From an uncultured Rikenellaceae bacterium (GTDB taxonomy: Bacteria; Bacteroidota; Bacteroidia; Bacteroidales; VadinHA17): a stretch of 64,000 bases of DNA. The translations under genes and the position numbers were made by a program. The stretch lies in the NCBI GenBank assembly GCA_964522415.1, contig CAZFVQ010000001.1, forward strand, positions 51,414-115,413, read 5' to 3'. Within the stretch, counting starts at the first letter, position 1, and each line of letters starts with the position of its first letter. The notes beneath the pieces were generated by a model that saw nothing but the letters and a program-made list of their open reading frames with translations, made no database searches and had not been told where the DNA came from. Below are positions 19,491 through 21,212 of the stretch, in pieces.

Positions 19491-21212
19491 ATGCTTTTTA
19501 CAATTCAGGTAAATAATAAGAAGATCAGGGCTGAAAAGGGTGAAACCATCCTTTCCGCACTGAACCGTAATGGTATAATAATACCAACCCTGTGCAGGAT
19601 GAAGGATTTTACACCTACCGGAGCCTGCAGGATGTGTGTTGTGGAGGTTGAGGGCCGTGACCGCCTTGTTGCTGCATGTTCCCAGCCCGTTGAGGAATGG
19701 ATGAAAATCAAAACACATTCACCGAGAGTCATTACGGCAAGAAAAACCAATGTGGAGCTTCTTCTTTCCAATCATCCCGATGACTGTCTTTACTGTGACA
19801 GGAATCTGAACTGTGAATTACAGCGCCTGGCTGAAGAACTGAACATAAGAGAGAGAAGGATAAAGGCAAAGAAGATCCGGCCGATGCTGGACCAGTCCAG
19901 TCCCTCAATAGTAAGAGAACTCTCAAAATGCATTCTCTGCGGAAGATGTGTCAGGGTATGTGAGGAAGTGGTTACTGCAACGTCAATCGATTTTATATAC
20001 AGGGGAAGCAGTATACATGTCGGACCTGCAATGGACCGGGATTTCAATTTCTCGAGCTGCATCAACTGCGGCCAGTGTATAATTGTTTGCCCTACGGGTG
20101 CCCTTCATGAAAAATACAACATCTCTGAAGTACAGGAATATCTTAACAATCCTGAATTCATGAAAGTGATTCAGTATTCTCCGCTCGTTCCTGCAGGCAT
20201 TGCAGAAGAGATCGGTATTAAATACAACCGTGATTTTGACAGTATTCTTAATTCCGTACTCAGGAAAATAGGATTTGAGAAAGTTTACAATACAGGAACA
20301 GGAACCGATATCCTGATATGGGAAATGGCAGAACAGCTTAAAAGCCGGATCAGCTCGGGAAATGGGGGACCGCTTTTCATTTCTGCCTGTCCCGCGTGGA
20401 ATAAATATGCCGAACAGTTCATGCCCTCGTATCTTCCCATGTTGTCAAGTCTGAAATGTCCCCAGCAGATTGCAGGTTCTCTTATCCGTACAGCTATTGC
20501 TGATCAGGCCGGAGTAAAACCCGAAAAGATTTTTTCAGTGTCGGTTACACCCTGTACTGCCATGAAATTCGAGGCGCGGCGTGACGGAATGATGCGCAAG
20601 GGAATAAGTGATATTGATTCCGTGCTGACTGTAAGGGAACTGGGCCGGCTTATCAGGCTCTACGGAATAGATGTGAGCAATTCAAGTTCGGAACAGGCCG
20701 ATTCCCCCATGGAAGGATTCAGTTCTGCCGCAGCTCTGGCAGAATTATCCGGAGGCCTTGCTGAAGGAATAATCAGATCACTGTGTTATTCTGAAACCAG
20801 GCATTCCCCCGGCAGGCAATATATAAAGAAACTCAGGGCAGGAGCCTCTTTCAGGGAAACGGTTATTCCCGCTGGTCAGTACGAGATCAGCGTTGCAGTT
20901 GTAGACGGGCTCACCGGACTGGAAAAGCTGAAGTCATCAATTGATGCCGGCAAGAAATATGATCTTGTGGAAGTGATGGTTTGTCCGGGAGGATGTATCA
21001 GCGGTGCAGGAATGCCGTTCAGGAACCAGAAGGATGACAGGAAAAATCTTGCCAGAATGATTTACCAGGCTGATGTGCATGATGCAATAGCCCTTCCGGA
21101 AAAATCACCGGTAATGATGAATATTTACGATAAACTGATTGCTGAGAACAGTGAGATTGCCGACAGAAAGATATTTCATACACATTATGTAAAAAGAAAT
21201 GTCCTGTTGTGA
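19491..21212 (+). CDS. hydA: M3-architecture [FeFe]-hydrogenase HydA-like subunit with non-canonical H-cluster pocket
   Basis: 573-aa ORF. The N-terminal region has a plant-type 2Fe-2S segment, HPDDCLYCDRNLNC, and the motifs CILCGRCVRVC and CINCGQCIIVCP. The H-domain motifs are FISACPAW, VTPCTAMKFE and EVMVCPGGCISGAGMP. All four cluster-ligating Cys positions are present. Confidence 0.8.
   Translation: MLFTIQVNNKKIRAEKGETILSALNRNGIIIPTLCRMKDFTPTGACRMCVVEVEGRDRLVAACSQPVEEWMKIKTHSPRVITARKTNVELLLSNHPDDCLYCDRNLNCELQRLAEELNIRERRIKAKKIRPMLDQSSPSIVRELSKCILCGRCVRVCEEVVTATSIDFIYRGSSIHVGPAMDRDFNFSSCINCGQCIIVCPTGALHEKYNISEVQEYLNNPEFMKVIQYSPLVPAGIAEEIGIKYNRDFDSILNSVLRKIGFEKVYNTGTGTDILIWEMAEQLKSRISSGNGGPLFISACPAWNKYAEQFMPSYLPMLSSLKCPQQIAGSLIRTAIADQAGVKPEKIFSVSVTPCTAMKFEARRDGMMRKGISDIDSVLTVRELGRLIRLYGIDVSNSSSEQADSPMEGFSSAAALAELSGGLAEGIIRSLCYSETRHSPGRQYIKKLRAGASFRETVIPAGQYEISVAVVDGLTGLEKLKSSIDAGKKYDLVEVMVCPGGCISGAGMPFRNQKDDRKNLARMIYQADVHDAIALPEKSPVMMNIYDKLIAENSEIADRKIFHTHYVKRNVLL

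Follow-up and report, generated by a model that had tools for sequence, protein, structure and literature searches.

The window analysed here is a stretch of 64,000 nucleotides from the genome of an uncultured Rikenellaceae bacterium (contig CAZFVQ010000001.1 of assembly GCA_964522415.1). It contains three consecutive genes, hydC, hydB and hydA, surrounded by genes for two further hydrogenase-like proteins of sensor type, signal transduction proteins, the repressor Rex and an FAD synthetase. Judged from sequence, hydCBA encodes a three-subunit HydABC complex (Bfu-type) from a lineage specific to uncultured Bacteroidales, in which the pocket of the H-cluster has been systematically remodelled. 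The two innermost residues of the canonical proton pathway, Cys299 and Glu279, are replaced in HydA, and the lysine beside the distal cyanide (CN) ligand is a methionine. HydA probably works slowly or via a different proton route, even though databases label it an ordinary hydrogenase.

A check of the open reading frame (ORF) and its translation found hydA intact, encoding 573 amino acids. Its Pfam domains are Fer2_4, NADH-G_4Fe-4S_3, two copies of Fer4, Fe_hyd_lg_C (6e-63) and a C-terminal segment similar to Fe_hyd_SSU. These make up the M3 architecture, which the first-pass annotation of this DNA had recognised by eye. Every cysteine of the F-clusters is present. PF04060, PAS and kinase domains are all absent according to Pfam.

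In a phmmer search of the Protein Data Bank (PDB), HydA aligns over its whole length with the bifurcating HydA subunits of Thermoanaerobacter kivui, Acetobacterium woodii and Thermotoga maritima, as well as with the Clostridium pasteurianum enzyme CpI. The best matches are T. kivui 8a6t (412 bits, E 3e-122), A. woodii 7q4v (371 bits) and T. maritima 7p5h (350 bits). Residues are numbered here by CpI, using a MAFFT alignment of the query, CpI and 150 diverse representatives. The CpI sequence used is 100% identical to 1FEH/3C8Y. The four cysteines that hold the H-cluster are all present: C300, C355, C498 and C502 of the query pair with C300, C355, C499 and C503 of CpI.

The three motifs that form the pocket are altered. 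In the phmmer pairings, FISACPAW of the query stands opposite FTSCCPSW in L1, VTPCTAMKFEA opposite VMPCIGKKFEA in L2, and CPGGCISGAGMP opposite CPGGCMSGGGQP in L3. Ala299 lies opposite the relay cysteine in three independent phmmer alignments (8a6t, 7q4v and 7p5h) as well as in the MAFFT alignment with CpI. The register that the first-pass annotation had read by eye is thus correct, including the GCC codon at the relay position, the two L2 substitutions next to a retained lysine, the changed L3 and the loss of both pathway glutamates.

Relative to CpI, the query carries Ser for Ala230, Leu for Ser232, Thr for Ile268, Thr for Ala272, Met for Glu279, Gln for Glu282, Ala for Cys299, Thr for Met353, Met for Lys358 (with Lys kept at 359), Ala for Phe417 and Glu for Gly418. 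Arg286, Ser319, Pro324, Gln325 and Met497 are kept, as are the cluster cysteines. The changes A230S, A272T, F417A and G418E go beyond those listed in the first-pass annotation and are fixed in the clade described below.

Evidence that these changes are a shared trait can be provided by related sequences. A clade sample of 230 sequences (median pairwise identity 73%, minimum 59%) was compared with 52 canonical representatives, no two of which exceed 50% identity. Position 299 of the clade is Ala in 218 sequences, Val in 7, Ser in 4 and Thr in 1, and never Cys, the residue found in all 52 canonical representatives. Five other positions are equally invariant in the canonical set. Of these, Glu279 is replaced in the clade by Leu, Ile, Met or Val (230/230), Lys358 by Met (228/230), Met353 by Thr (218) or Ser (12), Ala230 by Ser (215/230) and Ala272 by Thr (226/230). 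Phe417, present in 51 of the 52, is Ala in 214 of the 230; Gly418 (Gly in 46 canonical representatives, Ala in 6) is Glu in 225 and Gln in 5; and Gln509 (42/52) is Leu or Met.

The rest of the pocket has hardly changed. Positions that are invariant or nearly so in the clade are C300, P301, W303, S319, P324, Q325, Q326, C355, K359, E361, G421, G422, E425, E495, M497, C499, G501, G502, C503, G506 and G508. Of the pathway residues E279, S319, E282 and R286, the clade retains S319 alone. The first-pass annotation had described Arg286 and Ser319 as kept. This holds for both residues in the query, and for Ser319 across the clade, but position 286 varies among its members (K71/R65/A31/S18/N14), as does 282. 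That annotation had also called the TSCCP motif near-invariant in group A, which is true of its first cysteine. The second is Ser in 11 of the 52 canonical representatives, among them the structurally solved A. woodii HydA1.

The same signature is found whichever way relatives are collected. The 120 best clusters at 90% identity (72-100% identical to the query) all come from Bacteroidales/Bacteroidota metagenome bins. Their L1 reads ISACPAW in 109 cases and ISVCPAW, ITACPAW, ISTCPAW or ISACPSW in the others, with Cys at 299 in none. A scan of one genome per species gave at least 548 confirmed stretches, of which 80 were kept for comparison (63-94% identity). All 80 belong to metagenome-assembled genomes (MAGs) of uncultured Bacteroidales or 'Rikenellaceae' from fens, permafrost, sediments, soils and digesters, and position 299 is Ala, Val, Thr, Ser or Ile in them. 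A second search, seeded from the most distant locus, again returned uncultured Bacteroidales only.

All four alanine codons occur at position 299 among the relatives. This synonymous turnover, together with the strong conservation of the pocket, indicates that the pocket was remodelled and then held by purifying selection. A simple decay of the enzyme is further contradicted by the appearance of a new invariant residue, Glu418, within a strongly conserved pocket. With the ORF intact as well, a pseudogene can be ruled out. On this sequence evidence, the missing relay cysteine is a trait of a whole Bacteroidales lineage with conserved synteny and not a local oddity. Arguably, K358M, conserved in 99% of the clade, is a more drastic change than C299A.

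MAGs PLMC01 (L014 and L017) and JAWOIF01 (L053 and L072) each carry the Cys-less hydA cluster twice, on separate contigs. These may be paralogues or a mixture produced by binning. The clade has two subtypes, of 573 and 571 amino acids.

The features of the locus are collected in Table 1.

Table 1. Genes, codons and sites of the hyd locus, in positions of the window.
Feature	Position	Strand	Description
PP2C/SpoIIE-type phosphatase	13582..14766	-	3' of hydS; synteny conserved
HydS-like putative H2 sensor (group C, phosphatase-linked)	14776..16656	-	L1 SANCP, C-terminal PF04060 Fe-S motif, weak PAS
Small thioredoxin-like [2Fe-2S] ferredoxin ORF	16673..16981	-	Upstream of hydS; PF01257, 37 bits
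18-bp palindrome TTGTTAAAAAAATAACAA	17007..17024	.	73 bp upstream of hydC; Rex-box architecture
hydC	17080..17550	+	NuoE-like, 156 aa; thioredoxin-like [2Fe-2S], Cys 76, 81, 117, 121
hydB	17551..19485	+	NuoF-like, 644 aa; FMN/NADH module, N3-type [4Fe-4S] site, C-terminal 2x[4Fe-4S] domain
hydA	19491..21212	+	573 aa, M3-type [FeFe]-hydrogenase-like subunit; motifs ISACPAW / TPCTAMKFE / CPGGCISGAGMP
Met279-Gln282 codons	20325..20336	+	Positions of CpI Glu279, Glu282, proton pathway
Ala299 codon GCC	20385-20387	+	Position of CpI Cys299 proton relay
L2 codons Thr353, Pro354, Cys355, Thr356, Ala357, Met358, Lys359	20547..20567	+	M353T and K358M
Ala417 and Glu418 codons	20739..20744	+	CpI Phe417, Gly418; Glu418 clade-specific, candidate alternative relay
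H-domain/histidine-kinase fusion (group C, kinase-linked)	21569..23530	+	L1 TSDCP; synteny conserved
Stand-alone response-regulator receiver protein	23568..23963	+	
Hybrid receiver/histidine-kinase protein	23967..25103	+	
Rex, NADH/NAD+-sensing repressor	25203..25826	+	184 bits vs cut-off 126
RibF-type FAD synthetase	25840..26760	+	Last gene of cluster in nearly all loci

The hydC gene directly abuts hydB, and hydA starts 5 nt past the end of hydB. In phmmer searches against the PDB, residues 41-641 of HydB match B subunits from bifurcating Bfu enzymes. The best match is the A. mobile NiFe-HydB (568 bits); NfnB is also found, and HydB of A. woodii, T. maritima and T. kivui score 512-543 bits. 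The core features of BfuB and BfuC are present, namely the FMN/NADH module, the [4Fe-4S] site and the C-terminal 2x[4Fe-4S] domain of BfuB, with all eight cysteines of the latter retained, and the [2Fe-2S] site of BfuC. The N-terminal [2Fe-2S] cluster of BfuB is lacking. In alignments, the N-terminal domain of HydB (17551-17880, residues 1-110) still corresponds to the [2Fe-2S] domain of the A. mobile and A. woodii proteins, but its ligands are lost, with C79 as the sole remnant. This loss is clade-wide, with 0-3 cysteines in the first 110 residues.

Among the 80 loci, essentially all of those with sufficient length keep the gene order. The minus strand carries the small [2Fe-2S] protein, the HydS-like protein and the PP2C phosphatase, and the plus strand hydCBA, the HydA-kinase, the receiver, the receiver-kinase, Rex and RibF. 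The same cluster is found in relatives at 44% identity, of the ISSCP and TSSCP types. The hydS gene was listed as an ORF at 14776-16737, with a TTG at 16737; its probable start is Met28, near 16656. In the more distant locus L085, an 84-aa equivalent of the small PF01257 ferredoxin gene is present. Conservation of RibF may be linked to the supply of flavin to HydB. Group C sensors often adjoin A3 hydrogenases (PMC11406978).

The relay positions of the three H-domain proteins at this locus were stated by the first-pass annotation to be Ala, Asn and Asp, and the L1 motifs ISACP, SANCP and TSDCP bear this out. Within the 64-kb window there is no hydrogenase other than those of the cluster. The conserved cluster itself contains no alternative catalytic subunit and no genes for NiFe large or small subunits.

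The spacer between hydA and the hydA-kinase gene (21213-21568) varies in length among the loci (about 10 to over 2000 nt) and is probably non-coding. An ORF of 115 amino acids at 21209-21556 (orf115, plus strand) was rejected as a gene; it has no Pfam or NCBIfam match and no homologue in the 80 loci.

Further downstream, at 31197-39160, lie genes for an ADP-forming acetyl-CoA synthetase, an AMP-forming ligase, an aminotransferase and a three-subunit 2-oxoacid:ferredoxin oxidoreductase. By their annotation, these make up a ferredoxin-reducing, ATP-yielding module for the fermentation of amino acids. In L085 the same fermentation genes follow directly after hydA-rex.

The palindrome upstream of hydC suggests control by Rex. 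The consensus of the Rex box is TTGTGAAnnnnTTCACAA. Of 68 related loci, 54 have the pattern upstream of hydC in a relaxed palindrome search, the background being 0.004 per 300 bp. The window has no match to the strict Rex pattern TGTGA-N6-10-TCACA. An element resembling TAnnTTTG, TATATTTG, lies at 17050-17057. A scan for sigma-70 promoters and terminators was uninformative, giving counts at the level of shuffled sequence.

Several lines of evidence place HydA among the hydrogenase families. In an exhaustive search of representatives at 50% identity, the clade forms a single cluster (representative 69% identical), and the next match is only 44% identical. Beyond the clade, the nearest relatives are M3 HydA-like proteins that likewise lack the relay cysteine. 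They have S, F, L, N, H, E, D or A at position 299, have lost the pathway glutamates and have often lost Lys358. Canonical EER-C-[C/S] sequences rank after these Cys-less relatives, at 34-40% identity. A rough neighbor-joining (NJ) tree built on the H-domain puts both the clade and its sister P0131 inside a long-branched, non-canonical assemblage, separate from canonical group A as well as the two group C-type paralogues of the window. As NJ is prone to long-branch effects, this tree is indicative only.

Curated hidden Markov models (HMMs) give a similar picture. HydA scores 566.8 bits with NCBIfam FeFe_hydrog_A6 (NF040763), below the cut-off of 765, and 330.7 bits with the group A model TIGR02512, below the cut-off of 405.95. 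Both far outscore the group B model TIGR04105, the sole hydrogenase model outside group A that was compared. Source annotations of clade proteins read 'iron-only hydrogenase group A' or HndD (JGI), or give generic names (RefSeq/PGAP), the latter reflecting scores below the NCBIfam cut-offs.

HydA keeps the PF02906 H-domain with four H-cluster cysteines and the M3 F-domain with adjacent hydB and hydC, which are group A features. It lacks the relay cysteine, the Glu279 pathway and the L2 Met and Lys, and it falls short of the curated cut-offs. Replacement of the relay cysteine by Ala and loss of the pathway residues are traits shared with the sensory groups C and D. By its sequence and its partners, the complex is a descendant of a group A3-like bifurcating HydABC and would work in a similar way. 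To judge from its M3 architecture, its HydB and HydC partners, its want of a signalling domain and its A3 nearest relatives, it is not of sensory type.

Other L1 variants were encountered during these searches. Many otherwise canonical A3 HydA proteins, for example P0123, P0143, P0144 and 7q4v_A, have the L1 motif TSCSP, with Ser at the cubane-ligand position Cys300. A study of Hydrogenedentota A3 enzymes found L1 variation at the second cysteine only. Proteins of the P0153 type have the motif SSSSP, with neither L1 cysteine present. P0153 itself (586 aa) was considered as a Bacteroides-like relative and dropped; its neighbours are CheW and MCP genes. P0121 (4122 aa), a top match, consists of tandem canonical HydA units and is irrelevant to the clade. 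It contains seven canonical H-domains, with MPCTVKKTE every 444 residues, and probably represents either a repeat-array gene or an artefact of assembly.

Keyword searches of the literature found no description of a Cys-less HydABC or HydBC-linked lineage, and searches with the L1 motif strings returned unrelated acronyms only. In B. thetaiotaomicron, a 'group A3' M3 enzyme has 0.22% of the activity of CrHydA1 and is expressed at about 3-5 transcripts per million (PMC12578642). A link between the clade and this enzyme was considered and is not established, since there is no cultured Bacteroides in the clade; none occurs among the 232 homologue clusters or the 80 genomes.

Among characterised enzymes, the electron-bifurcating group A3 HydABC hydrogenases of T. 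kivui, A. woodii and T. maritima share with the query an M3 HydA carrying a [2Fe-2S], a His-ligated [4Fe-4S], two [4Fe-4S] clusters and the four H-cluster cysteines. They also share its adjacent partners, a NuoE-like HydC and a NuoF-like HydB that ends in a 2x[4Fe-4S] domain. The query differs from them in Ala299, a hydrophobic residue at 279, Met358, Thr353, Ala417, Glu418 and a HydB without N-terminal [2Fe-2S] cysteines.

Sensory hydrogenases resemble the query in the pocket rather than in architecture. Group C TmHydS (A131) and group D TamHydS (A137) also have Ala at the relay, a mostly non-protonatable pathway and a small or polar residue in place of Met353. Unlike the query, they have short N-termini and C-terminal parts such as an extra cluster, PAS or signalling domain, and they do not belong to a complex with HydB and HydC. 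The clade in turn retains Met497 and Ser319, unlike TmHydS and TamHydS; the group C-type paralogues of the window have Gly353 and Ala319.

What these substitutions mean for proton transfer can be judged from model enzymes. Cys299 is the terminal relay, as the first-pass annotation had stated, and variants with Ala or Ser in its place are essentially inactive. That annotation also took the loss of pathway residues as a hallmark of sensory hydrogenases. The literature agrees: a relay changed from Cys to Ala, together with lost pathway residues, is typical of groups C and D, which are slow and putatively sensory (PMC10407848, PMC8924675). Restoring the cysteine to a sensory scaffold gives no gain in speed unless further residues are changed.

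There is about an even chance that HydA is part of a real but remodelled HydABC hydrogenase that lacks the canonical proton pathway and is slow, biased or served by another relay, for which Glu418 is the candidate. The H-domain would still bind the H-cluster. NADH, at the FMN of HydB, and ferredoxin, at its C-terminal clusters, would be coupled to H+/H2, chiefly as an electron sink for fermentation. Rex, responding to the NADH/NAD+ ratio, and the two neighbouring H2-sensor cascades would govern expression. Since the Cys-Glu-Ser-Glu-Arg route is closed to protons, the enzyme should either be biased or turn over much more slowly than CpI-type enzymes. This reading is supported by the architecture of HydA, its HydB and HydC partners, its bifurcating nearest relatives, the clade-wide signature, the synteny, Rex with its palindrome and the ferredoxin-reducing genes nearby.

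An alternative proton route may run through the 417-423 loop, with Glu418 as candidate relay assisted by Glu495 and Ser/Ala420. Glu418 sits beside Ala417, the substitute for a pocket-lining Phe. A partial analogy can be found in group D TamHydS, where a Glu about 3.4 A from the amine acts as relay in place of Cys. This residue, E252, corresponds to CpI V423, as deduced from the mutagenic-primer sequence SGG[E]AF. Position 423 is Ile, Leu or Met in the clade, which therefore does not use the group D solution; relatives of the TSSCP type do carry Glu423. Among representatives at 50% identity, 12 of 49 Cys-less but only 1 of 85 Cys-containing sequences are acidic at 418 (Fisher p = 2e-5), and 15 of 49 against 1 of 85 have an acidic 418 or Glu423 (p = 7e-7), an enrichment that is suggestive only, shared ancestry being uncorrected.

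Besides this caveat, several points count against a remodelled hydrogenase. The hydE, hydF and hydG genes are absent from the 64-kb window, and the clade is known from MAGs alone. As the N-terminal [2Fe-2S] ligands of HydB are missing, bifurcation behaviour may also differ. An AlphaFold2 model of HydA, built from a 27-sequence alignment, is too poor to place Glu418 relative to the cofactor (mean predicted local distance difference test score, pLDDT, 55.9; L2 and L3 segments below 50). Above all, binding of the H-cluster is not assured, given the near-universal K358M. In model enzymes, substitution by Asn of the residue beside the distal CN, which a review describes as an arginine, abolishes the [2Fe] signals (PMC11376134).

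This last point leads to an unlikely but serious alternative, in which the H-domain would hold a [4Fe-4S] cubane only. HydA would then be an electron-transfer (BfuA-like) subunit, and the complex would be some other NADH/ferredoxin-linked oxidoreductase in place of a hydrogenase, or would depend on a further partner. The Asn variant is reportedly K358N of Knorzer et al. 2012. Besides Lys358, residues 230, 232 and 353 around the CN/CO ligands are changed, and HydA scores below the group A cut-offs. There is also a precedent in the NiFe-HydABCSL of Acetomicrobium mobile (7t2r), which has HydABC-type B and C subunits, the B subunit being the closest match to HydB of the window, and in which HydA carries a plain [4Fe-4S] in place of the H-cluster (PMC9304861). 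However, the solved NiFe-HydA matches the query over residues 4-205 only, not over the H-domain. In HydA-like proteins without a [2Fe] subsite (HydA of NiFe-HydABCSL, eukaryotic Nar1/NARF), the H-domain keeps the ligands of the cubane but not the surroundings that bind [2Fe]. The pattern in the clade is mixed: Lys358 is lost and the CN/CO contacts are altered, but residues relevant solely to the [2Fe] cavity (G421, G422, G501, G502, G506, G508, M497, P324 and Q325) are invariant or nearly so in the 230 sequences. Moreover, a Bfu core requires a third redox site, the conserved cluster encodes no other catalytic subunit, and the linkage to two proteins of H2-sensor type persists at 44% identity.

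Alternately, HydA might bind the H-cluster but serve as a slow, H2-responsive or redox-poising device, the third sensory-type module of the locus. The relay Ala and hydrophobic pathway are what slow group C and D enzymes display, and the remaining two H-domain proteins here are sensors in type. Yet two dedicated sensors would already be in place, HydA carries no signalling domain and groups with A rather than C or D, and its M3 architecture, the NADH and ferredoxin modules of HydB/HydC and the ferredoxin-producing fermentation genes nearby fit metabolism better; such a role seems quite improbable. It is more doubtful still that HydA is an ordinary, fast group A3 bifurcating hydrogenase in whose scaffold the substitutions are neutral. 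Its best overall matches are indeed characterised bifurcating HydA and HydB proteins, and source annotations name it accordingly, but Cys299, Glu279, Lys358, Met353 and Ala230 are without exception in the 52 canonical representatives, Cys-to-Ala/Ser model variants are inactive or nearly so, and a cysteine added back to a sensory scaffold does not restore speed on its own.

Very little likelihood attaches to an uptake-biased enzyme that makes NADH and reduced ferredoxin, with a pocket tuned like that of C. pasteurianum CpII. Ser230, Thr268 and Thr353 of the query are the trio that separates CpII from CpI, but CpII, unlike the query, retains the TSCCP and MPCxxKxxE motifs and with them Cys299 and Lys358 (PMC5506873). 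Thr268 is in any case also the commonest canonical residue (39/52), and the Rex linkage and nearby ferredoxin-producing genes better suit the disposal of electrons. CpII is not known to be HydBC-linked. The options that the first-pass annotation had named (slow, biased, non-catalytic or with another route) form the right set, but the present computations cannot choose among them.

A broader grouping may also be considered. It is possible, if somewhat doubtful, that the clade is one branch of a wider, unrecognised radiation of HydBC-linked, Cys-less M3 HydA proteins that would form a distinct class beside groups A, C and D. In such a class the hydrogen bonding of the pocket would be altered by the lack of Lys358, and the relay would come from the 417-423 loop, as Glu418 here and Glu423 in the relatives at 44% identity. 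A broad set of M3 HydA-like proteins without Cys299, often without Lys358 too, is found among the 50%-identity representatives (P0124-P0150, P0153 and others). The three gene contexts of Cys-less relatives that were examined (L081, L084 and L085) all adjoin NuoF-like genes.

If such a radiation is real, many metagenomic calls of 'group A3 bifurcating hydrogenase' would refer to enzymes with different kinetics or direction. Surveys of hydrogenases class proteins like this one as group A (A3/HndD) and infer from them that anaerobic Bacteroidales produce H2 in peat, sediments, soils and digesters. For at least several hundred species these inferences need revision if the lineage is slow, biased or no hydrogenase.

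The lineage is also a natural experiment, a metabolic-type complex without the relay cysteine and the distal-CN lysine, both of which are regarded as essential. With the rest of the cavity strongly constrained and a new Glu fixed beside the pocket, alternative proton routes and the stabilisation of the cofactor become open to experiment. Its conserved pairing with two sensor-type hydrogenases and Rex would represent a compact system for H2 and NADH regulation outside the Firmicutes.

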